This document shows, piece by piece, positions 16,466 to 64,000 of a stretch of 64,000 bases of DNA (the first letter of the stretch is position 1; the number at the start of each line of letters is the position of its first letter). The notes below the pieces were generated by a model, which made no database searches, was not told where the DNA came from, and saw only the letters and a list, made by a program, of their open reading frames with translations. Origin of the DNA: Myxococcota bacterium (GTDB lineage Bacteria; Myxococcota_A; UBA9160; UBA6930); NCBI GenBank assembly GCA_965223415.1, contig OZ245002.1, positions 3,040,001-3,104,000 of the forward strand. Reading direction: 5' to 3'. The position numbers and the translations under genes are program-made.

Positions 16466-16945
16466 TCACCCTTCGCCCGGCCGACCCAGAGAGTTCCGAA
16501 CGGAGAGGTACAGCATGACGACGGCGAACCCCAGCTTCGGCAGTGCGCCGAGCTTCCCCGGAGGCGTGTGCTCAACGTAGACCGGATCGATCGGATGCAG
16601 CGCGCCGACGACGAAGCCGAAGCAGGACTCCACGACCAGGAAAGCGAACATCAGGGGGATCAGGCTCCGGTAGCGCCAGAGGACGATGCCGTAGACGATC
16701 ACGAACAACATCTGGACCATGCCGCCGTTCGCGCTGAACAGGTAGATGAGGTTGTTCGGGTCCGGGTCGCCCTCGAAGACGATGATGCTCGCGATCGAGT
16801 TGACGCCGCTGTCCGGTGCCAGGAAGTGGACCGTGGAACGGAACAGCATCACCGCCACCAGCAAGCAGAAGCCGTAGAAGGGGATGGCACCGCCGCGGTA
16901 GTCGTTGTCCGCCTCTCGGGGTAGGAGGACGCCCGGGGTGCTCAT
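16466..16945 (-). CDS. Hypothetical membrane protein (paralog A)
   Basis: About 4 TM; NDYRGG, HFLAPDSGVNSIASIIVFEGDPDP, LWRYRSLIPLM, HTPPG. Confidence 0.8.
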   Translation of the reverse strand: MSTPGVLLPREADNDYRGGAIPFYGFCLLVAVMLFRSTVHFLAPDSGVNSIASIIVFEGDPDPNNLIYLFSANGGMVQMLFVIVYGIVLWRYRSLIPLMFAFLVVESCFGFVVGALHPIDPVYVEHTPPGKLGALPKLGFAVVMLYLSVRNSLGRPGEG

Positions 16946-17418
16946 GCGGGCTCCTCCGCCGCCTTCCGGACCGCGAGGAGGAACAGGCCGCCGATCAACA
17001 GGAGCTTCGGTCCCCGGACCAGCATCGCCGGGGGCGTGCGCTCGAAGTACTCGGGGGTGAGCGGGTGCATCGCAGTCACCACGAAACCGAAGACCATGCC
17101 CAGGAGCATCAATGCGAGCATCAGGGGCACGAGGCTCCTGTACCGCCAGAGCACGATCCCGTAGAGGAGAACGAATAGCATCTCGTGCATGCCCGCGATC
17201 GATGCGAACATGTGGGCGATCGGAGTCGGGTCGGGATCCCCTTCGAACACGATGATGCTCGCGATGGTGTTCTTGCCGCCGTCGGGCGTGAGGAAGTGGA
17301 CCGTAGCGCTGAAGAGCTGCTCGGCGACCAGGAAGCAGAAGCCGTAGAGGGCGATCGCACCGCCGCGATACTCGTTGCCCGCCCGTCGCGGGACGATGAC
17401 CTCGAGGATCTCCGTCAT
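16942..17418 (-). CDS. Hypothetical membrane protein (paralog B)
   Basis: About 4 TM; NEYRGG, HFLTPDGGKNTIASIIVFEGDPDP, LWRYRSLVPLM, RTPPA; ATGA overlap with paralog A. Confidence 0.8.
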   Translation of the reverse strand: MTEILEVIVPRRAGNEYRGGAIALYGFCFLVAEQLFSATVHFLTPDGGKNTIASIIVFEGDPDPTPIAHMFASIAGMHEMLFVLLYGIVLWRYRSLVPLMLALMLLGMVFGFVVTAMHPLTPEYFERTPPAMLVRGPKLLLIGGLFLLAVRKAAEEPA

Positions 17419-19735: not shown

Positions 19736-22700
19736 TCAGGCCCGCCGGCGCCGGCGCAGGAAGCCGAGGAGCGGCACGAGCAGCGCCAGCTCCGGGCCGA
19801 AGCCGCAGAGCGGAGGCGAGGAAGCCGCCTCGGTCGCCTTCCACGCCGTGGTGCACTGGGGATCCGGGCCATTGGGATCGCCATTGCCCGGGCCCAGAAC
19901 CGACACGCCGCCGTCGAAGTCCGTGCCGAGCTGGCCGTCGTTGTCCTTGCCGTCCTGGCAGGCCGGGGCCTCCTCGTCCGCGTCCGGGAGCCAGCAACCC
20001 GGGTCGTTGGCATCGTCGATCATGCCGTCGCCGTCGTTGTCGACGCCGTCGTCGCAGGCCGGGTTCTCGACGTTGGGGGTGGCGCCGTTCGCGCAGCCCG
20101 GGTCGACCGCGTCGACCAGGCCGTCGCCGTCGTTGTCGATGAAGTCGCCGCACGCGCCCGTGACGCTGCCCGCGTTGGCCGGATCGGTGCCCGCGTCGAG
20201 CTCGTCCCGGTCGAACACGCCGTCCTCGTCCGCGTCGATACCGACCCGGTCGCCGGAGCCCGGCGGCACGCAGGTGTAGGTGATCTCCTGGCCCGCGGTC
20301 TGGGCGATGAGCCGCAGCTGGGCGTCGGTGTGGGTCTCGGAGCTGCGGTCGCTCTGGAAGTGCGAGAGCCCCGGCCGGTAGACCCAGCCCCTCGCCTCTC
20401 CGTTCACCACGCCCTTCGCCACCAGGTCGCACTCGGTGACCGTGCCGCCGAGGACCTTCGAATCGAAGGCGGTCCCGGCCTGGGCGACCAGGAGCGTGAT
20501 GCGGCCGTTCGTGTCCGCGTCGCCGGCGCCCGCCAGGGTCACCTGCTGTCCGACGATGGGCGCCAGGTCCGAGGGGAACTGCAGGCTGAACTGCTCGAGG
20601 TCGTCCTCTTCCTGGGGGGTCAGGTTGAAGACGCTGCCCGGGTTCCCGCCGCCGAGGAAGGTCTTCACCGTGTCGACGCTGCCGTCGTGGAGGAATCCGG
20701 TGCCCCGCACCTGATCCCCGGTGAAGCTTCCCAGGGCCGAGGCCCCGAACATGCCGACCTTCTGATACATGTTGCGCATGTGGGCGACCTTGAAGTTCTG
20801 GGGCTCGCCCTCGAAGGTCATTTCGCCCCCCGTCCCGAAGAAGCCGTCCACCGGGTCGAGGTTGTGGCAGCCGTCGCAGTCATCGACGGTGTCGCTCGAG
20901 TTGGGGACCGTCCCCCCGTTGACGAAGATCTGGTCGTGGGCGCACTCCGCGTTCCCGGCACCGCAGCTGAAGAACTTGGTCTCGCCAGCCAGGGCGGCGC
21001 CCGTGTAGACGTTGTCCAGGGGAGCGACCGGGTTGGGCGGCAGCTGCACCTGGAGCATGAAGTCCGAGAACTTCTGCATGTCCGTGGTCGAGATCAGGCC
21101 GTCGTGGCCGACCAGGCCCTCGAAGGCGACGATGAAGTTCCGGAAGGAGAGGTCCTCGTCACACGGAGCCGTCGTGCTCTGGTTCGTGGGATCGCCGCTG
21201 CTCACGTTCACGTAGCCCGTCGCGTTGCAGCCATCGAGGCCGAAGAAGCCGTCGACCCGGTCGCCCCGCCAGTGCATGGCCCCGTGGGTGGACATGCCGC
21301 GGAGCGTCTGGGTCGTCATCGGGCCCTTCATCGGATGGAGGCTGAACTGGTCGTACCCGCTGGGAATGATCGTCTGCGTGACCAAGAAGCCCAGGGAATC
21401 AGCCGGGTCGAGGAGCGGCGTGGCGATCGGCTGCGAGTTCGTCGAGACGTGGTCGTCCGGATTGCCCAGGTTCCAGGCCAGGCTGTCGAAATCGCCGAAG
21501 ATGTGGCAGCTCGAGCAGGAGGCCTCGCCATTGCCCGAGGTGAGCACGGCGTCGTAGAGGACGGGGCGCCCGTCCTTGAGCGACTCCGGCTCCGGGTTCA
21601 GGAGCGGGAGCCGGTAGGTCTCCGTGCCCGCGGTGGTGTCCACCACGGCGACGGAGTTGTCGAAGCGGGTCGTCACGTAGAGCCGGCCGCGGGCCTCGTC
21701 GAGGGCCAGGCCGCTCGGGCCGCCGGCCACGTCGATGTAGTTGGCGCTCTCGGTCGTCGGGTCGAAGTTCGCCTCGAAGAGCGGATCCTCGATGTCTGCC
21801 GTCGCGAAGACACCGACCTTGCCCGACCCGAAGGCCGCCACATAGAGGGTGGCACCGGCCGAGTCGACCACCGCCTGCAGGGGCGTGGCCAGGCTGTGGT
21901 CCTTCTGGGTCGGGTCCACGAGGTCCGGCACGTCGGTGTGGAGCCTCGAGTAGTCGATGTGCTGGTTCAGGTGCTGCGGGTCGACGGAGGGGCCCGTGGG
22001 GTCGAGGACGCTGATGCGCGTCTCCGACAGACGGCCCTGGACGGTGCTGCCGCCGTGGCCGCCCGGGCCCTCGAAGCGCACGTGGTTCGGGCTCTCGGTG
22101 TTCGTCACGTACACCTTGCCCGTCACCGGGTTCACGACCATGTTGAAGAGGATCGTGCCCACGTGGTCGAACTCGACCACGCTTCCGCTGGCGAGCGTGT
22201 TGGCGTTGATCGAGAACACGTCGTGGTCGGGCAGGCTCAGATTGACGCAGCCCGTCCAGTCGCGACCCACGGCGTCCCGCCAGGCGGCGCCGTCCCACTT
22301 CACGATGATGCCGGTCTCGGGCGCCGGGTCGCCGGCTGCGTTGTCGTCGGGGCCGGGGACACCGCCCGGCGCGGTTCCGCCGCCCGGGCACGACGCGGTG
22401 CCGGCGCTGTCGAAGCCGTCGGGGACGACGCTCTCGAAGATCGTCGTGGTCTGGTTGCCCGAGTGGAAGGCCGCGGCGTAGACCGTGTTCCCGTCGGCGC
22501 TCACGGCGAGGGCGCGCGGCGTATCGGCGAAGAAGCTCACGATCTCGAGCGGATCGCCGCCGATCGAGCTGCCCGGCGCGGTCGCCGAGAACACCCAGAC
22601 GTCCGCCCGGCCGATGCCCTCGGTCGTGAGCTGGGCATCGCCTGCGCCGGGCACGCTGTTGATGGAGCTGTGGGTCCGGTGCTGGCCCCGGTGCGCCGTC

Positions 22701-23110
22701 GTGATGAACGCGCGGCCCGCTCCGGTGCCGGCGAACACGATGTCCCGGGGCTCGTCGCCCACCAGCAGGGTTCGGACGACCCGGCCGCTCGGGACGTCCA
22801 CGATGCTCACGCTGTCCGAGAGATGGTTCACCACCCAGACCTCGTCGTTCGTCCGCGCTGCGACCGCCACGGGCTCGAGGCCCACCGGCACGGAGCCGGT
22901 CGGGTGGATGCCGTCGTCGTCCACGTCGAAGATTTCGAGCCGGTTGGCCGGCGTGTTCGCGACGAACAGGCGCGCGCCGTCCGGCGAGAGGGCGATCGGC
23001 CGGACCGGGCCCGACTCGAACGCGACGAAGGAGGGCTGGGCCCCGGCCGACCCGCCCACGAGGACGAGGCAGGCCAGGAGCGCGGCGAAGACGGAGGTGG
23101 AGCGGAGCAT
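19736..23110 (-). CDS. Secreted YVTN-type beta-propeller + di-heme c (cytochrome c peroxidase-like) protein with C-terminal anchor
   Basis: Signal peptide, YVTN-like repeats (LFVANT, VWVVNHLSDSVS, VYVTN), CSSCH and CDGCH, three C-x-D-x-x-D-N-D-G repeats, CGFGPEL-TM-RRRRR tail. Confidence 0.85.
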   Translation of the reverse strand: MLRSTSVFAALLACLVLVGGSAGAQPSFVAFESGPVRPIALSPDGARLFVANTPANRLEIFDVDDDGIHPTGSVPVGLEPVAVAARTNDEVWVVNHLSDSVSIVDVPSGRVVRTLLVGDEPRDIVFAGTGAGRAFITTAHRGQHRTHSSINSVPGAGDAQLTTEGIGRADVWVFSATAPGSSIGGDPLEIVSFFADTPRALAVSADGNTVYAAAFHSGNQTTTIFESVVPDGFDSAGTASCPGGGTAPGGVPGPDDNAAGDPAPETGIIVKWDGAAWRDAVGRDWTGCVNLSLPDHDVFSINANTLASGSVVEFDHVGTILFNMVVNPVTGKVYVTNTESPNHVRFEGPGGHGGSTVQGRLSETRISVLDPTGPSVDPQHLNQHIDYSRLHTDVPDLVDPTQKDHSLATPLQAVVDSAGATLYVAAFGSGKVGVFATADIEDPLFEANFDPTTESANYIDVAGGPSGLALDEARGRLYVTTRFDNSVAVVDTTAGTETYRLPLLNPEPESLKDGRPVLYDAVLTSGNGEASCSSCHIFGDFDSLAWNLGNPDDHVSTNSQPIATPLLDPADSLGFLVTQTIIPSGYDQFSLHPMKGPMTTQTLRGMSTHGAMHWRGDRVDGFFGLDGCNATGYVNVSSGDPTNQSTTAPCDEDLSFRNFIVAFEGLVGHDGLISTTDMQKFSDFMLQVQLPPNPVAPLDNVYTGAALAGETKFFSCGAGNAECAHDQIFVNGGTVPNSSDTVDDCDGCHNLDPVDGFFGTGGEMTFEGEPQNFKVAHMRNMYQKVGMFGASALGSFTGDQVRGTGFLHDGSVDTVKTFLGGGNPGSVFNLTPQEEDDLEQFSLQFPSDLAPIVGQQVTLAGAGDADTNGRITLLVAQAGTAFDSKVLGGTVTECDLVAKGVVNGEARGWVYRPGLSHFQSDRSSETHTDAQLRLIAQTAGQEITYTCVPPGSGDRVGIDADEDGVFDRDELDAGTDPANAGSVTGACGDFIDNDGDGLVDAVDPGCANGATPNVENPACDDGVDNDGDGMIDDANDPGCWLPDADEEAPACQDGKDNDGQLGTDFDGGVSVLGPGNGDPNGPDPQCTTAWKATEAASSPPLCGFGPELALLVPLLGFLRRRRRA

Positions 23111-30168: not shown

Positions 30169-31827
30169 CTTCCCGTCCGAGAAGAGCCGTTCGTCGGCCT
30201 CTTAGTGGATCGTTGGCGGTCTTCGCGGGCGTTGAGAGTAGCGATGTCACAGCAGTCCCGGAGCCGTCGGGGTGAGTGAGCGACCGTGTTCCGATGCGCG
30301 GGCGCACGTGTCCACCGACCGAACCACTCTCAGGGGTTCAGGCGAACTCGCGAGTCAGCAGGTGGCGGGCCAAGGCGACGAGGTTGAAGCTCGTCACACT
30401 GGCCCAGACATAGGCCTTGAAGGACGCCAGGCCCCGCCAGGTGCATCGGTCCATCTGGAACGCTCGCTTGAGCGTCGAGATCACGCCCTCGATCCCCGAG
30501 CGGAAGTCACGAAGGCGCCGGAAGACCCAGGCGCTGCGCACCATCTCGTGGACCTCGAGTCCGCTCTTCTTGTTGAAGGCCATGTCTTCCACGCCGAGCG
30601 CCTTGGCCTTGGCAACGTTGTCCATGGACGCGAAGCCTCCGTCCATCGCCACTTGGCGGGGTGCCTTGCCGAAGAGATCTGCATGGCGCTCGAGCGTACG
30701 TTCGACCAGCGTCGAGTCCGTAGGGTTTCCTTCCTCGATGACACAGTCGAGGACGAGTGACGACCTGCCGCCAGTCAGACAGACCTTGTGACCGTAGTAG
30801 GTGCCTCGATTGTCCTTCACGAGGATGTCCGAGTGCGGCTCGAAGATCGACACGATCTTCTCGGCTGCAGGGACGCGCTCGCCTTCGAGGACACGGCGAC
30901 GGCTCTGATCGATGACGCGCTCGACGAGGGGAAGCACCGCGAGGAGCTCTTCGCGAAGCGGCGTCGTGTCTTCGACTCGGGCGACCCTCTCCGCGACGCT
31001 ACGGGCCGCTTGGCAGACCTCTTCCGTGGCCCGGATCATGCACCGATAGCTCGCGACCAGGTTGATCGACCGCCGGTGGAACTTGATCGCGTAGGCGCGT
31101 CGCTTCACGCAACGACGACGATCCGGGAACATCTTGCGCAGCGAAGGGCGTTGCTTCGCCATCCTTCGCAAAATCCGCGTCATCACCCGAACGCTGTCCC
31201 AGAGCAGGGCCGAGTCGGCGGGCTCGTGGATGTTCGCCTCGACGACCGTCGTATCCGCCCGAATCGTCTCGCCTCGTTCGATTCCTTCCCGGCGAGCCAG
31301 GCCGATCAACGCACGGTGGATGGCTTCCCACGTCTCGGGCCGGATCCGTTTGACGTTGTCCTGAAGGGTCTGGAAGCGGGGCCAGTCACCGAGCCCGAGT
31401 CCTACGAAGCTGCGGAAGGCGGCCGAGTCCTGGAGGTGAAACTCCAACTCCCGGTAGCTCAGCCCGTGGATCTGCTTGAGTAGGGCGATTCGAAGGACCT
31501 GATCGCCGCTGAGGCCCCGACGGCCGGTATCGGCGCGACGTTCCCCGATCAGATCTCCGTGCACAACAGCACCCAAGCGCGGATCCGCCCCGAGGATCCT
31601 GGCGATCATCTGCAGCTCTCGGGTATGTTGATGCGGACCCCATGTGGGCGTGAGTGAGAGCTGAGTTTCTCGGAATCGGCGCATCGCTTCACCCCCCGGT
31701 TGGCGAATTGCTGTGTATGTTCGGTAGGTTGGCACCACCTAACATACACCAATCGAAACTCGATCGGGAGGCGCGTTTGCGCCAATTCCTTTTCTTCTCA
31801 GTGACTTACGAGTTCTTGGACGGGAAG
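30169..31827 (-). mobile_element. Complete insertion sequence (ISNCY/IS5-like DDE), 1659 bp
   Basis: TIRs CTTCCCGTCCGAGAA / CTTCCCGTCCAAGAA (14/15); 6-bp direct repeat TAACTA at 30163-30168 and 31828-31833; single transposase. Confidence 0.88.
30338..31684 (-). CDS. DDE transposase
   Basis: RADTTVVEANIHEP (D), VAMDGGFAS (D), FRSGIEGVISTLKR (E); LSYRELEFHL N-terminal region. Confidence 0.92.
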   Translation of the reverse strand: MRRFRETQLSLTPTWGPHQHTRELQMIARILGADPRLGAVVHGDLIGERRADTGRRGLSGDQVLRIALLKQIHGLSYRELEFHLQDSAAFRSFVGLGLGDWPRFQTLQDNVKRIRPETWEAIHRALIGLARREGIERGETIRADTTVVEANIHEPADSALLWDSVRVMTRILRRMAKQRPSLRKMFPDRRRCVKRRAYAIKFHRRSINLVASYRCMIRATEEVCQAARSVAERVARVEDTTPLREELLAVLPLVERVIDQSRRRVLEGERVPAAEKIVSIFEPHSDILVKDNRGTYYGHKVCLTGGRSSLVLDCVIEEGNPTDSTLVERTLERHADLFGKAPRQVAMDGGFASMDNVAKAKALGVEDMAFNKKSGLEVHEMVRSAWVFRRLRDFRSGIEGVISTLKRAFQMDRCTWRGLASFKAYVWASVTSFNLVALARHLLTREFA

Positions 31828-45614: not shown

Positions 45615-48600
45615 CTACCCCCGCAACCGGCGCCGCACCGCGCCTAGCACCGCCAGGACCGGCAGCAGCTCGGCCCCGAGCCCGCAGGCGCTCGTGAAGC
45701 GCTTCTCCTGGTTCCCCGCCGGATCGTTCCCGCACTGGGGATCCGGCGAGCCGCTGCCTCCGCCGTCCCAGTCGATGAGGCCGTCGCCGTCGTCGTCGAC
45801 GCCGTTCGAGCACTGGGGCGGGACCACCGTCCAGACGAAGCTCGTGGCGGCGACGGCCGGACCGTCGGACACGCCGACGATGACGGTGTAGACGCCGTCG
45901 GCGCCCAGGTCGGGCGGGCCCTCGATGCGGCTGGTGGCTTCGTTCCAGCTGGTGCCGGGCGGCAGGCCCGAGGCTTCGACATGGAGCAGGTCGCCGTCCG
46001 GGTCCGCGGTCGCAACGGGGATGAACAGGGGCTGGGCGGCAGCGCTCAGCTGCGGTGCGATCGGCGCGATCGCCGGAGGCGCGTTCACGATCGGCACCGG
46101 CGGCTGGAGGTAGAGGCGGCCCGGGGGAATCTGGGATTTCGTGACGCCCGGGCCCTCCCAGGACACGTCCAGCACCTGCTGGCCGCCGCGCTCGAAGAAG
46201 GTCACCTCGATGGCGTGGGGTCCCGCGGTCAGGCCCAGGACCGTGCCCGAGGCCTCCTGGGTCGCGTGCAGGCCGTCGTTGTCGACGACGAGGACATCGT
46301 CGATCAGGAGCTGGCTGCCGTCGTCGGAGCTCGTGTAGAAGGTCCAGTCGCCGGCCGTCGGTACGTCGACCCAGGCGGTGAAGCGGAAGGCGAAATCGTC
46401 GTCGCGCAGCCGGGGAGAGATGTCGAAGGTGTCGACGCTGCCGATCGTGATCGGGGTCTCGGCGTCGAAGTCGGGCAGGACGCTCAGGCCCGTGATCTCG
46501 AAGTACTCGTAGTCGACGCCGATGCGCGGGAAGGCCGGGTCGATGCGGAGGATCCAGTCGTACAGCCGATCGAGGCCGGGCTGGTGCACGAGGCCCTTCA
46601 GGAGCGGCGGCATGGCGATCGGGCCCAGGGCGGCGGCGCGCTGCAACGCGATCGAGGTCATGGGATTGCCGGGCGTCACCACGTGGGCATCGGGCACGCC
46701 GAGGTCGTCCATCACCGGGCCCCACACGAGGCCCTGGCTCTCGACCGGGGTGGTGTAGCGCGCGTCGAACACGGCGCGGTTGGTGGTGCCCGGCTGGTGA
46801 CACGCGGCGCAGTTGGCGTCGAGCCAGGAGCGCGCCCGATTCTCGAGGGACGCGGTGACGTCTTCGAGGACCGGCGCGGCCGGGTAGGTGGGAATCTGTG
46901 CCTCCATCAGGGATGGCGTGAAGAGGCCGAGGTGGTTCCAGGTGCGGAGCTGGTTGTCGCTGCGACCGGTGGCCGGGTACGTGAGGGATCGGTTCAGTCC
47001 GTGGGTGCGGGGGCCCAGCGGGCGTCCCGGTGAGAAGCCGTGGCACGAGCGACAGTCGAGGCGGCTCGGGAAGGTCCAGGTCTGCTGGCGCGTTCCGCCG
47101 CCGATGGTCGCGATGTCGACGATGCGGGTCTCGCGAGCCGTCAGCAGATAGGCATCGGTTCCGTCCTCGAGCCAGCGGTAGGCGAGCCCGTACCACTCGC
47201 TGTCGTTTCCCCGCACGAGCAGGCGCGTCTCGAGCCGGGTCGTCTGGATCGGGTCCGCGTCGTCCACGCCCAGCTCGAAGTGCTTCATCAGCACGGAGCC
47301 GTTCGGGAAATCCCAGTCCCCCGTCTCCGACCACGCGATCTGCTCGCCGGGCTGATCGTGCGTGCCGTCGTTCGGCACCGCCGCCCAACGCTGCTTCAGG
47401 GCGTCGTCGGACCAGAACGGGACCGGCTCGAAGGGGACGAAGAAGGGCGCAGGCTGCAGGCTCCCGAGATCCGCGAAGGCGCCGATCTGGGAGAGCCAGG
47501 GCGGCGCGTCCGCCGGCGGACCGGAGAGGCGCACCAGGGACTGGAGGGGAACCGTGCCCGCGACGCTGCCCAGGAGGATCTCTCCCTGTCCGTCCTGGCC
47601 GAAGGTGCCGAGGGCGCCCGGCGCGAAGGTGGTGAGGAGCTCCTTCGTCGCCGTCATCGACACCGGGTCGAGGGTGATGGCCCAGATGTTCGCGGTGACG
47701 TAGTCGCCGGCGATGTAGCGCCCCTCGAGCTCCGGGAACTGGCTGCCGCGGTAGACGTAGCCTCCGATGATGGCCCGCGCCTCGGCGCGCACGAAGTCGA
47801 TGACCGGGTCCGTCAGGGTGCCGAGCACCACCGGCGGGGCGGAGCGCGGCCCGCTGACGAGACCCTCGCGGAACGGCCATCCGAAGTTGCCGCCCTGGAC
47901 GAGGACATTCACCTCTTCCCGGGTCGAGGCGCCCACCTCGCCGGACCAGAGTCGCCCGGATTCCGGGTCGACGGCGATTCGGTGGGGGTTGCGATGGCCG
48001 ATGGACCAGTACTCCTCGAAGGTCAGTCCGCCGGGAGAAGGCCAGGGGTTCGTGTCCGGGATGCAGTAGTGGCGTCCCGACATCTCGTCCGGATTCCCGG
48101 TGACGGCCTGCATGCGGCGGATGGGCGTGTGGCTGCCCGTAGGACACACCACGGTGTCGTCGGGCTGCACGATTCCATCTACGTCGAGACGCAGGGTGCC
48201 GCCTTCCAGGTTGGTGTCGATCTGCTGGGCCGTGTCGTATCGGAACTGGTCGCCGATCGCGAGGTAGAGGTATCCGTCGTGGCCGAAGACCGGTCCGCCG
48301 CCGCGATGGGAGCCGTTGTAGAGCCGGATGTTCAGCAGGGGTTCTTCGCTGGTCGGGTCGCCCACCAGCACGGCGGCCTGGGCGTCGAAGACCTCGAAGC
48401 GCGACAGACGCAGGTAGGTGCCGAAGAAGCCGCCGGTCGAGCCGCGCGGATAGGCCGGGTCGCAGCTCGCCAGGTCGACCTGTTTCAGGCTGCCGTCCAA
48501 CGGGCAGTGGGAGCTGTAGTAGACGAAGAAGCTGCGCTCGTGGAGGGCGCCGGGGATACCGAAGTCCGGATGGAAGGCCAGGCCGAGGAAGCCGCCGTCC

Positions 48601-48971
48601 CACACCTCGGCGACGCGGTCGGTGAGATCGAGGAAGGGATCCGCCGTCGCGGCCGCCGGGTCGTTCGGGAACGAGACGAGGATGCCCTGCCGCGAGCCCA
48701 CGTAGAGGCGATCCGACGCGGGATTGGTCTCCGCCGGGTTGGCGGCGATGACCAGGGTGTCCACCAGCGGGAGCGAGGGGAAGGCGTCGCCCACGTCCCA
48801 GGTGGAGTTGCCCGGCCCGAGCGGTGTGAGGGAGGGCAGGGCGCCGTTCAGGAAGGCGCCGACCGGGACCGGAGCGTCCAGGCCGTAGGGCTGGGCGCGT
48901 AGCTCGGCAGCGGCTCCCAGGAGCAGGAGCAGGGACGTCCAGGTCAGGAATCGGCGCGGCGGCTTCGGCAT
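45615..48971 (-). CDS. Secreted glucose/sorbosone-dehydrogenase-like propeller + di-heme c + PA14 + Ig-like protein with C-terminal anchor
   Basis: GFLGLAFHPDF, HRGG, GHRNP, GGNFGWP (GSDH); CRSCH and CAACH; FYTSSDDGSQL...DNDGLH (PA14); ASGLPPG (Ig); CGLGAEL-TM-RRR tail. Confidence 0.85.
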   Translation of the reverse strand: MPKPPRRFLTWTSLLLLLGAAAELRAQPYGLDAPVPVGAFLNGALPSLTPLGPGNSTWDVGDAFPSLPLVDTLVIAANPAETNPASDRLYVGSRQGILVSFPNDPAAATADPFLDLTDRVAEVWDGGFLGLAFHPDFGIPGALHERSFFVYYSSHCPLDGSLKQVDLASCDPAYPRGSTGGFFGTYLRLSRFEVFDAQAAVLVGDPTSEEPLLNIRLYNGSHRGGGPVFGHDGYLYLAIGDQFRYDTAQQIDTNLEGGTLRLDVDGIVQPDDTVVCPTGSHTPIRRMQAVTGNPDEMSGRHYCIPDTNPWPSPGGLTFEEYWSIGHRNPHRIAVDPESGRLWSGEVGASTREEVNVLVQGGNFGWPFREGLVSGPRSAPPVVLGTLTDPVIDFVRAEARAIIGGYVYRGSQFPELEGRYIAGDYVTANIWAITLDPVSMTATKELLTTFAPGALGTFGQDGQGEILLGSVAGTVPLQSLVRLSGPPADAPPWLSQIGAFADLGSLQPAPFFVPFEPVPFWSDDALKQRWAAVPNDGTHDQPGEQIAWSETGDWDFPNGSVLMKHFELGVDDADPIQTTRLETRLLVRGNDSEWYGLAYRWLEDGTDAYLLTARETRIVDIATIGGGTRQQTWTFPSRLDCRSCHGFSPGRPLGPRTHGLNRSLTYPATGRSDNQLRTWNHLGLFTPSLMEAQIPTYPAAPVLEDVTASLENRARSWLDANCAACHQPGTTNRAVFDARYTTPVESQGLVWGPVMDDLGVPDAHVVTPGNPMTSIALQRAAALGPIAMPPLLKGLVHQPGLDRLYDWILRIDPAFPRIGVDYEYFEITGLSVLPDFDAETPITIGSVDTFDISPRLRDDDFAFRFTAWVDVPTAGDWTFYTSSDDGSQLLIDDVLVVDNDGLHATQEASGTVLGLTAGPHAIEVTFFERGGQQVLDVSWEGPGVTKSQIPPGRLYLQPPVPIVNAPPAIAPIAPQLSAAAQPLFIPVATADPDGDLLHVEASGLPPGTSWNEATSRIEGPPDLGADGVYTVIVGVSDGPAVAATSFVWTVVPPQCSNGVDDDGDGLIDWDGGGSGSPDPQCGNDPAGNQEKRFTSACGLGAELLPVLAVLGAVRRRLRG

Positions 48972-62415: not shown

Positions 62416-62880
62416 ATGCCCGTCTGGAAGCCGCTGGCCGGCGCTCTCGCCCTCGCGGCGGTCGGATGCCGTGCGCCTGCACCCGCAGCCCCGGTTCCCC
62501 CCGTGCCCTACCGCTCCCACGTCGACGTCCAGCAGCTCATGGCACGGATCCTCTTTCCGGTGAGCGACGAGATCTGGGACTCGTCGGGCACCATCATCAC
62601 CGCCGAGGGCCGCACCGAGCTGGCGCCGACCACGGACGAGGGCTGGGAGCGGGTGCACGACCGCGCCCTGCTCGTGGCCGAGCTCGGCAACCTGCTGATG
62701 CTGCCGGGGCGGTCCCAGAGCCCCGAGTGGGACGCCTACGCCCGCGGCATGAGCGCCGCCGCCCTCGAATCCGTCGTGGCCGCCCAGGCTCGGGACCCGG
62801 ACGCGCTCTTCGACGCCGGCGGCCGGCTCTACCAGACCTGCAAGGCCTGCCACGACCGCTACTGGCTGACGGACGAGTAG
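62416..62880 (+). CDS. Cytochrome c'-like (class II) lipoprotein
   Basis: AVGC lipobox; helical; C-terminal CKACH heme motif. Confidence 0.8.
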   Translation: MPVWKPLAGALALAAVGCRAPAPAAPVPPVPYRSHVDVQQLMARILFPVSDEIWDSSGTIITAEGRTELAPTTDEGWERVHDRALLVAELGNLLMLPGRSQSPEWDAYARGMSAAALESVVAAQARDPDALFDAGGRLYQTCKACHDRYWLTDE

Positions 62881-62883
62881 CCG

Positions 62884-63444
62884 GTGTCGCTCCTGCCCTT
62901 CTGCGAGTGGCTCGCCTCGACGCCCTGGAGCGTCGCCCTCGTCGAGTCGCTGTGGGCCTACCCCCTGATCGAGACCACCCACGTGCTCTCGCTGATGCTC
63001 TTCGTCGGCACGGTCTTCTTCGTCGACCTGCGGCTCCTGGGCTGGGCGCTGCGCGACGTTCCCGTTTCCGAGGTCACTGCGCGCATCCTGCCCTGGACCG
63101 TCTCCGGCTTCGCCATCGCCGCGCTGACTGGCGCACTGCTCTTCTACGCCATTCCGGTCCGCACCTACCTGAGCCTTTTCTTCCGCATCAAGGTCGTGAT
63201 GCTGGTCGTCGTGGCCATCAGCATCACGAGCTTCCACCGCTACATGAACCGCACCGGGGCCGTCTGGGACCATGATCCCGTGCCCCCGCCGCGTGCGCGG
63301 CTGGCCGGCGCCGTGTCCCTCGTCTCCTGGGCCACGGTGATCGTGATGGGCCGCCTGATCGCCTACAACTGGTTCGACTGTGATCGGCAGCCCCAGCCCG
63401 CCTTCGTGAACTGGGCGGCCGGCTGTCCCCTCGAAGGGCCCTGA
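62884..63444 (+). CDS. DUF6644-like membrane protein
   Basis: YPLIETTHVL, DLRLLG, TGALLF, FRIK, GRLIAY. Confidence 0.75.
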   Translation: MSLLPFCEWLASTPWSVALVESLWAYPLIETTHVLSLMLFVGTVFFVDLRLLGWALRDVPVSEVTARILPWTVSGFAIAALTGALLFYAIPVRTYLSLFFRIKVVMLVVVAISITSFHRYMNRTGAVWDHDPVPPPRARLAGAVSLVSWATVIVMGRLIAYNWFDCDRQPQPAFVNWAAGCPLEGP

Positions 63445-63447
63445 GCG

Positions 63448-63918
63448 ATGACGCTCTTCGAGGTCTTCGACCGGTTGGAGCAGACGGCGCTCGGGGCGGC
63501 GGTTCGCGATTCCGTGTGGCTTTTCCCCGTGATCGAAGCCGGTCATCTCCTGGGCCTGGCGGTGCTGGGTGGCTCCGTGCTCCTCCTCGACCTCCGGCTC
63601 CTTGGCCTCGGCCTGGGAGCACGCCCGGTCGCCTACGTGCGGGAGCAGACCGGGCCATGGGTCGTCGCGGCGCTCGTCGTGCTCGTCGCCACGGGCATCC
63701 CGCTCTTCCTCTCGGAGGCGGTCAAGTGCTACTTCAGCCCGGCCTTCTGGGTGAAGATGGGAGCCCTGGCCGCCGCCCTCGTGTTCACCTTCGGCGTGCG
63801 CAATCGCCTGGCCGGGCGCGAGGGGCTGGGGCCCGCGGCGGCCCGGATGCTCGGGACCGCGTCCATGGCCCTGTGGCTCACGGTCGCCGCGGCAGGGCGA
63901 TGGATCGGGTTCTCCTAG
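63448..63918 (+). CDS. DUF6644-like membrane protein (paralog)
   Basis: FPVIEAGHLL, DLRLLG, TGIPLF, FWVK, GRWIGF. Confidence 0.75.
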   Translation: MTLFEVFDRLEQTALGAAVRDSVWLFPVIEAGHLLGLAVLGGSVLLLDLRLLGLGLGARPVAYVREQTGPWVVAALVVLVATGIPLFLSEAVKCYFSPAFWVKMGALAAALVFTFGVRNRLAGREGLGPAAARMLGTASMALWLTVAAAGRWIGFS

Positions 63919-64000
63919 CGCGGCGAACGATCGGGTCGTCACGGCCGCTTCGGCTCCCGGGGATCGAAGCCGTCCCGCGGCGCCCCCGTTCCCGATGAGC

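Follow-up and report, generated by a model that had tools for sequence, protein, structure and literature searches.

The stretch of DNA analysed here (the window) comprises 64,000 nucleotides from a Myxococcota bacterium (GenBank assembly GCA_965223415.1, contig OZ245002.1, positions 3,040,001 to 3,104,000). It carries two large genes, P0001 and P0002, whose products end in a similar tail composed of a Cys-containing motif, a hydrophobic run and an Arg cluster. This Cys tail proves to be genuine and widespread, a Cys-containing signal at the C-terminus that has apparently not been described before and comes in two subtypes, A and B. The features of the two genes are as follows (window coordinates).

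19736..23110, minus strand: cargo gene P0001, 1124 residues (translation and domain searches)
19736..19807, minus strand: Cys tail of P0001 (subtype A), CGFGPEL followed by 11 hydrophobic residues, an Arg cluster and the stop; member of a 13-gene family
19853..20152, minus strand: three NF033662-like acidic double-disulfide repeats upstream of the P0001 tail
23039..23110, minus strand: predicted N-terminal signal peptide of P0001, residues 1-24 (read from the sequence)
45615..48971, minus strand: cargo gene P0002, 1118 residues (translation and domain searches)
45615..45686, minus strand: Cys tail of P0002 (subtype A), CGLGAEL followed by 11 hydrophobic residues, an Arg cluster and the stop
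45732..45812, minus strand: single acidic double-disulfide repeat upstream of the P0002 tail
48894..48971, minus strand: predicted N-terminal signal peptide of P0002, residues 1-26 (read from the sequence)

The C-terminus of P0001 reads CGFGPELALLVPLLGFLRRRRRA (translation of 23110-19736, minus strand) and that of P0002 reads CGLGAELLPVLAVLGAVRRRLRG (translation of 48971-45615, minus strand), with 23 residues from the Cys to the stop in both. In P0001, the tail Cys codon occupies positions 19807-19805 and the stop codon positions 19738-19736; downstream of the tail no terminator- or promoter-like site was called. The hydrophobic run after the tail Glu amounts to 11 residues, which is short for a transmembrane helix. 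Between the signal peptide and the acidic repeats, P0001 contains a YVTN/YncE-like beta-propeller and two CxxCH motifs, the region of which gives a weak MbnH/MauG-like match. P0002 combines a glucose/sorbosone dehydrogenase-type propeller, an SO2930-like di-heme cytochrome, PA14 and an Ig-like domain with its single acidic repeat. A preliminary description of the window had placed both tails at these positions, given each 23 residues from the Cys to the C-terminus and regarded the remainder of the two proteins as unrelated. The translations agree with the former, and the latter is borne out by BLASTP: the single clear segment of similarity between P0001 and P0002 covers their final 75 residues (E 1e-7), all remaining segments having E >= 0.01.

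The source genome (one contig, 5.83 Mb, 71% G+C, 97% complete) is represented by 5218 genes called with a purpose-written codon-usage script. Thirteen of them have the full tail at the C-terminus, with C-G-[LFI]-G-x-E-[LV] leading into a hydrophobic run of median length 11 residues and then an Arg cluster. The association between the motif and the rest of the tail is strict: CG[LFI]GxE[LV] is found within 55 residues of the C-terminus in 13 of the 5218 genes, each time with the hydrophobic run and the Arg cluster, and at other protein positions twice, in neither case with them. Twenty shuffled proteomes yielded one bare motif and no full tail. The C, G, G and E of the motif are invariant across 34 aligned tails, and among the 13 proteins homology beyond the tail region is confined to a single pair. 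An N-terminal signal peptide is visible by eye in 11 of the 13 genes; two genes look truncated. The 11 carriers beyond P0001 and P0002, together with the failure of any tail in this genome to reach a CTERM cut-off, strengthen the earlier proposal of a lineage-specific tripartite C-terminal signal on secreted proteins. Two other parts of that proposal have to be revised. The tail had been linked to large redox proteins, but the wider cargo, which includes a subtilase, a metallophosphoesterase, a lipase-like hydrolase, and FG-GAP, beta-helix and propeller proteins, does not consist mainly of redox enzymes. The fixed length of 23 residues, true of P0001 and P0002, is not general, as the tail Cys lies 23 to 51 residues before the C-terminus in this genome.

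Several irregular copies of the tail were also encountered. Three orphan tails lie in short or broken frames (G000 C1 3015519-3015620, 3574245-3574355 and about 3898310-3898380), and at L007:6552-7403 a dehydrogenase-type gene with an internal deletion has retained its tail; these cases reflect turnover of cargo genes. P0007, P0140 and P0145 have two tails each, one of them internal, and may be gene fusions or read-through calls (internal MYXO-CTERM has been reported as well).

How far does the tail extend beyond the source genome? A profile built from the 13 tails (subtype A) matched 90 of 168 relatives from the same class, which we take to be GTDB class UBA9160. Homologs of P0001 brought to light subtype B, C-G-L-[LVI]-G-[ILV]-E-P, which is one residue longer; its six-sequence profile matched 71 of the 168 relatives and added 19 genomes. 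With two more added from a phylum sample, either subtype is present in 111 of the 168 class relatives, namely in 109/145 genomes of the source genome's order and 2/23 of the other order, the highest count per genome being at least 32 tails. In the phylum sample (301 genomes, each at least 90% complete), subtype A was detected in 27/58 class relatives versus 2/242 genomes from outside the class, the latter as single weak matches (E 3e-4 and 5e-4); these out-of-class counts refer to subtype A, subtype B having been searched within the class. Owing to kinship, genome counts here and below are not independent. Among 1.84 billion cluster representatives, 1725 protein clusters match the tail at E <= 0.001. 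Of the best 150 of these 1725 matches, 148 have the six-residue motif, with the Cys at most 35 residues from the C-terminus in 131/148. In the wider matches, the profile has Glu at position 6 in 100% and Pro at position 12 in 95%, and the invariant Cys is often preceded by Gly, Ser or Ala. The titles of the matching records mostly name Myxococcota, Myxococcales or Deltaproteobacteria metagenome-assembled genomes. Two apparent extensions of the range were discarded: four genomes titled Spirochaetales gave tail coordinates identical to those of class genomes already counted, and one titled Thermoanaerobaculia has a single match on a 2.7 kb contig that may be misbinned. None of the names of 20 tail proteins that were looked up mentions a sorting domain, and a search of the ESM Atlas returned only leads below 0.8, Myxococcota clusters without names.

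Both P0001 and P0002 have, as the preliminary description had noticed, a shared C/D/G-rich module upstream of the tail. This module appears to be the described acidic double-disulfide repeat of NCBIfam NF033662 (acid_disulf_rpt; P0001 scores 40.7 bits, P0002 19.8 and a third tail protein 58.1, with a cut-off of 41) and not a part of the signal. The repeats stand just upstream of the tail in 7 of the 13 proteins, and the Cys preceding the tail is often 15-17 residues away, so one might regard the tail as the mere end of an acidic-repeat module spread by domain shuffling, with its Cys engaged in a structural disulfide. We consider this highly improbable, and the repeat-free tail proteins already largely refute it: no such repeat is found in 6 of the 13, and two proteins have their nearest Cys at a distance of 58 and 215 residues. 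In addition, an acidic repeat lies within 60 residues of the tail in only 38 of the 148 wider matches, many of which are fragments. Since NF033662-type repeats hold two Cys each, the tail Cys is left odd and, to judge from the repeat pattern, would be without an obvious partner.

Could the tail be a form of an already described signal? We scanned 65 tails (14 from the source genome and 51 from relatives) singly against NCBIfam. A curated CTERM cut-off was passed by one tail of a relative (TIGR03382, 16.9 versus 15.85 bits), so that 0/14 source-genome and 1/51 relatives' tails pass TIGR03901 or TIGR03382; TIGR03901 gave sub-threshold matches only, the best with 16.6 of 20 bits. Five tails scanned against Pfam had no match. 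The enzyme provides the decisive test: the myxosortase core model NF040914 (Mrt_core) found no gene above its cut-off in 169 class genomes, the best score being 48.7 of 100 bits. As a control, exactly one gene was found by this model in 237 of the 242 other Myxococcota of the phylum sample and none in its 59 class genomes. Judging by the tail and Mrt_core counts inside and outside the class, the ranges of tail and myxosortase are complementary in the searched genomes. Furthermore, in a quick tree of 87 CPBP cores (109 columns, no bootstrap) the 20 myxosortases form one group with an SH-aLRT (approximate likelihood ratio test) support of 99, and none of the 67 class rows falls inside it. On the scores, the phylum control and the tree, a canonical myxosortase was rejected as the enzyme acting on the tail. 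The neighbourhoods of the 20 myxosortase genes revealed no conserved neighbour that could be traced into the source genome.

In the light of these results, the earlier suggestion of a MYXO-CTERM variant is not supported: 64 of the 65 tails stay below the cut-offs, and myxosortase was not found in any of the 169 class genomes. A more elaborate version has the tail descend from MYXO-CTERM with strong divergence, the cleaving enzyme still being a myxosortase ortholog, though one no longer recognisable as such. The shared phylum, the invariant Cys often following Gly, Ser or Ala, the weak TIGR03901 matches, the one TIGR03382 pass and the presence of the tail exactly where myxosortase is missing would all agree with such a history, and the Haft preprint (10.1101/2023.06.07.544157) describes lineage-specific MYXO-CTERM forms that can score low. 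However, the best Mrt_core score is less than half of its cut-off and no class protein joins the myxosortase group in the quick tree. The same preprint describes the MYXO-CTERM helix as free of charged and Pro residues, whereas the tail has an invariant Glu and a Pro in 95% of wider matches. We therefore think a diverged MYXO-CTERM unlikely. A full-text search of the literature outside subscription journals found no paper with the tail motif. Among the matches listed there for UBA9160 together with CTERM, sorting or exosortase none named the lineage, and papers from 2023 onward on C-terminal sorting and Lgt were limited to PMC11980579 in that search.

An indication of what the tail does comes from homologs of its cargo, in which different tails replace each other. 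According to tail classes assigned by regular expression, 119 homologs of P0001 end in subtype A (12), subtype B (6), a PEP-CTERM-like tail (15), a VPxL/IPTL-like tail (52), another transmembrane-Arg tail (5) or none of these (29). Among 119 subtilase homologs, 53 have subtype A and 5 the VPxL type. One representative PEP tail of the P0001 homologs passed TIGR02595. Taken together, the swaps with known cleaved signals, the unrelated exported cargo and the four invariant residues are most simply explained if the tail is another sorting signal, and of this part of our interpretation, taken alone, we are highly confident. The 52 P0001 homologs of the VPxL class (P0176-P0276) end in [VIL]P-x-[LIVM], a helix and Arg; three such tails were scanned and matched no NCBIfam CTERM model at E 0.01. 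Possibly, this VPxL tail is a lineage variant of the IPTL-like signals.

The same swapping raises the question of whether the tail might be a Cys-bearing variant of the PEP-CTERM class, cleaved by an exosortase, with G-x-E-L in the role of V-P-E-P. The Glu is invariant in the tail, and the first basic residue lies at offset 17 counted from the Cys, similar to the offset of 19 counted from the Val in the genome's 35 PEP-like tails, one of which reads PEPELALLV (compare GPELALLV of P0001). Two exosortases are encoded here. Of 16 sampled genomes, 15 have exosortases and the remaining one belongs to the order that is nearly devoid of the tail, and a tail gene of the DUF7467 family discussed below comes after a PEP-CTERM gene. 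Nevertheless, exosortase cleavage leaves the invariant Cys unexplained, and no tail reaches the cut-off of a PEP-family model. Exosortases are equally common in genomes without a detected tail, and clustering of the genes around the tail genes brought up no recurrent exosortase. The similar length, the Glu and the swapping keep exosortase cleavage a live rival, though in our opinion an improbable one.

If the tail is a sorting signal, how might it work? Our preferred answer follows the working model for MYXO-CTERM, in which lipidation is followed by cleavage and export through the type II secretion system, Lgt being the leading candidate for lipidation (PMC11980579). Cargo proteins would be exported by Sec through their N-terminal signal peptides. 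Translocation might then be halted in the inner membrane by the short helix and Arg cluster, leaving the Cys on the periplasmic side. The Cys would receive a diacylglyceryl group, from a dedicated Lgt paralog in genomes that have one and otherwise from the housekeeping Lgt. Cleavage on the C-terminal side of the Cys, for which a CPBP encoded between greA and ridA is a candidate, would by analogy come next, and the type II secretion system could complete export (GspD of the source genome passes its cut-off). In this way the tail likely anchors exported proteins to the cell surface via a lipid on its Cys. Toward the whole chain, that is, a portable sorting tail whose Cys is lipidated by an Lgt-family enzyme and whose helix is removed by a non-myxosortase Rce1-like (CPBP) protease, we lean only slightly.

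The lipidation step is suggested by gene neighbourhood and a partial co-occurrence with Lgt. The source genome has two Lgt genes, the second of them at G000 C1 3948152-3948916. Relatives of the second one (E <= 1e-20) are present in 32 of the 168 class genomes, 31 of them tail-positive. We examined 34 loci of this paralog (33 in relatives plus that of the source genome; two end upstream at a contig edge), and at 12 its immediate upstream neighbour, in the same orientation, is a tail gene. A PEP-CTERM gene usually stands in front of that tail gene, and on the opposite side there is a convergent PAP2-family gene. In G093 and G116, the gene adjacent to Lgt carries the only tail detected. Residues R143, G154, Y235, R239, R246 and H103 are functionally important in E. 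coli Lgt; the paralog retains equivalents of the first five, and that of H103 is kept in neither the paralog nor the housekeeping Lgt. Two or more Lgt copies occur in 74/111 tail-positive versus 12/57 tail-negative genomes; counting by subtype A alone (70/90 versus 16/78) overstates the link. Outside the linked subclade described below, G159 is an apparently separate second case, with unrelated cargo. The Lgt subfamily was found in 0/22 and 0/13 genomes of two families that have myxosortase. Lipidation by enzymes of the Lgt family, a dedicated one in some genomes and the housekeeping one in others, would agree with these data, which fall short of proving it.

Two further arrangements of Lgt genes deserve mention. 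At L057 and L101:10153-13029, the second Lgt of the source genome is divergent from an ICMT/PEMT-family methyltransferase gene and adjoins a transposase. Lipidation, cleavage and carboxyl methylation would together echo CAAX processing; the pairing of Lgt with a methyltransferase was not seen at the other Lgt loci. In two tail-rich genera (L123-L127; G072, G073, G155, G156 and G069), a third Lgt paralog stands beside a YegS/diacylglycerol-kinase-family gene.

As to the protease, the preliminary description had named CPBP, rhomboid and exosortase proteins as candidates. The source genome encodes five CPBPs, two exosortases and five rhomboids, and none of these passes a model for a Cys-tail enzyme or rhombosortase. 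Four of the CPBPs are located at G000 C1 3678189, 2754902, 2035533 and 4869841. The rhomboids score at most 37.5 of 84 bits with the rhombosortase model TIGR03902, a score on which a rhombosortase was rejected as the enzyme. The best-placed candidate is the CPBP between greA and ridA, a single-copy gene in 129/145 genomes of the order and 0/23 of the other order, a range that matches that of the tail at the order level. In M. xanthus, the two CPBPs other than MrtX are reported not to act on TraA (PMC11980579). A comparison of CPBPs in five tail-rich and five apparently tail-free genomes revealed no group that follows the tail, and exosortases, as mentioned, are no commoner with it. One CPBP group seemingly limited to tail-rich genomes was dismissed, as it is devoid of the first catalytic Glu and lies beside PEP-CTERM and glycosylation genes.

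A different association of a CPBP with Cys-containing C-termini was noticed in four genomes (L202:2127-7848 in G015, L146 in G029, L153 in G025 and L183 in G007), where RHS-repeat proteins stand beside their own small CPBP, all belonging to one clade (SH-aLRT 95). At the C-terminus of the RHS proteins of G015, G029 and G007, a Cys is followed, after a spacer, by a hydrophobic segment and Arg. In G015 the CPBP comes after a divergent Lgt-like gene, which scores 23.8 bits with a cut-off of 24.9. These loci look like a second, dedicated Cys-tail cassette.

A number of observations weigh against the proposed chain of lipidation and CPBP cleavage. On the side of Lgt, 37 of the 111 tail-positive genomes show a single copy, and in four genomes that are 95-97% complete and have 5 to 13 tails even a lax search gave the housekeeping Lgt alone. 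Eleven of the 12 Lgt-adjacent tail genes belong to one DUF7467 family beside one Lgt subclade and therefore represent one evolutionary event. No tail gene stands beside the second Lgt of the source genome, and the same Lgt subfamily is found in 143/242 genomes of other classes, so it is not specific to the tail. The surroundings of the tail at 78 metagenome loci, mostly on short contigs, and at 30 subtype-B loci spanning about 3 kb yielded neither an Lgt nor a CPBP gene. Clustering of the neighbours at 68 genome and 78 metagenome loci detected no recurrent membrane enzyme beyond the Lgt paralog and the convergent PAP2 gene. On the side of the protease, no CPBP group separates the five tail-rich from the five apparently tail-free genomes, an imperfect control in that one of the latter (G153) carries subtype B. 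The greA-ridA CPBP has relatives with 34-43% identity in 5/5 genomes of other classes, and any order-wide gene would show its pattern of occurrence. No enzyme tracks the tail strictly. Finally, the invariant Glu and the frequent Pro in a short helix have no explanation in the model.

With no cognate protease found, the tail might instead be a permanent inner-membrane anchor that is never cleaved, its helix, with just 11 residues after the Glu, being strengthened either by lipidation of the Cys or by dimerisation through it. The cargo would then be periplasmic, where the heme-c proteins P0001 and P0002 could well work. In M. xanthus, uncleaved MYXO-CTERM proteins are reported still to reach the surface in part (PMC11980579). 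But a plain anchor would not need an invariant C-G-x-G-x-E across two subtypes, and the tail occupies the slot of cleaved signals. A permanent anchor thus appears quite unlikely, and we retain the lipidated and cleaved sorting signal as our working interpretation.

Apart from P0001 and P0002, the window contains two adjacent similar membrane proteins of about 158 residues that are apparent tandem paralogs (16469-17418, minus strand), a transposase-like gene (30341-31564, minus strand) and, at 62503-64000, small co-oriented genes for a cytochrome-like protein, two related membrane proteins and a secreted protein. A repeated element is present at about a dozen positions of the genome.

The tail would be the fifth Cys-containing C-terminal sorting signal, represented by at least 1725 protein clusters, beside four in print, all of which the Haft preprint (10.1101/2023.06.07.544157) assigns to CPBP proteases. 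Through it, the probable surface proteome of an uncultured but abundant lineage can be recognised. It also qualifies the published view that MYXO-CTERM and MrtX occur throughout Myxococcota, since one class is without detectable myxosortase and carries this tail instead. The tail is further relevant to the identity of the enzyme that lipidates the Cys, explicitly left open in the myxosortase paper; the Lgt paralogs directly behind tail genes offer gene pairs suited to the E. coli assay that already exists.

Of the known systems, MYXO-CTERM (TIGR03901 and TIGR03382; MrtX/MrtC/MrtP, NF040914; 10.1101/2023.06.07.544157, PMC11980579) is the closest in its overall design. The two share the phylum, an invariant Cys with a hydrophobic segment and an Arg cluster, many unrelated signal-peptide cargo proteins and the presence of a type II secretion system. 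However, the new tail is shorter, with 16 residues from the Cys to the first Arg and no spacer, and has a fixed CG[LFI]GxE or CGL[LVI]GxE as well as Glu and Pro inside the helix. It would work in the manner of MYXO-CTERM, yet model scores, helix composition and enzyme set it apart from that family. CGP-CTERM of Thermococcales (TIGR04288; MrtA, NF040590) resembles it in having a short Cys-Gly motif that abuts the helix without a spacer. Its enzyme was assigned as the one universal single-copy CPBP, the only argument that the greA-ridA CPBP has as well. Unlike the new tail, CGP-CTERM is archaeal and has the motif Cys-Gly-Pro; 0/65 tails match TIGR04288, and the best MrtA score in the source genome (50.1 of 200 bits) belongs to a protein without the first catalytic Glu. 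Synerg-CTERM (TIGR04564, MrtS) has a single invariant Cys and a conserved Pro in a Leu-rich helix, and is the most frequent weak match (5/34 tails, best 16 of 22.5 bits). JDVT-CTERM (NF033191, MrtJ) also has a single invariant Cys, but its DP motif nine residues after the Cys is missing from the tail profile, and it usually has one target per genome, with MrtJ adjacent, versus 13 targets here. Both are found in other phyla; the best scores of MrtS and MrtJ in the source genome are 43.6 of 130 and 28.2 of 75 bits. The PEP-CTERM and IPTL-like signals of exosortases have a similar length and a conserved Glu and occupy the same slot on homologs in the same genomes, but they contain no Cys and their models do not match the tail; the two exosortases of the source genome, both over the TIGR02602 cut-off, are accounted for by about 35 ordinary PEP-like tails. 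With the GlyGly-CTERM model TIGR03501 the best tail scores 13.7 of 15.5 bits.

It is tempting to go further and suggest that the class replaced MYXO-CTERM and myxosortase by a mirror image of the lipoprotein signal, a dedicated Lgt paralog lipidating the Cys and a non-myxosortase, perhaps even non-CPBP, protease removing the helix; we regard this as possible yet doubtful. Like the bacterial lipoprotein signal peptide (Lgt, LspA), the tail has a Cys next to Gly and a hydrophobic stretch of 13-16 residues bounded by basic residues, and an Lgt paralog is linked to tail genes. Unlike it, the tail is reversed and C-terminal, has no canonical lipobox and would be cleaved after the Cys. The distance from the Cys to the first basic residue is 16 in the tail; for 79 putative lipoprotein signal peptides of the genome the median is 13. 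Mean hydropathy is 1.7 in the tail versus 2.3 in those signal peptides, the lower value of the tail being due to its Gly and Glu. The geometry of the tail is roughly that of a lipoprotein signal peptide read in reverse.

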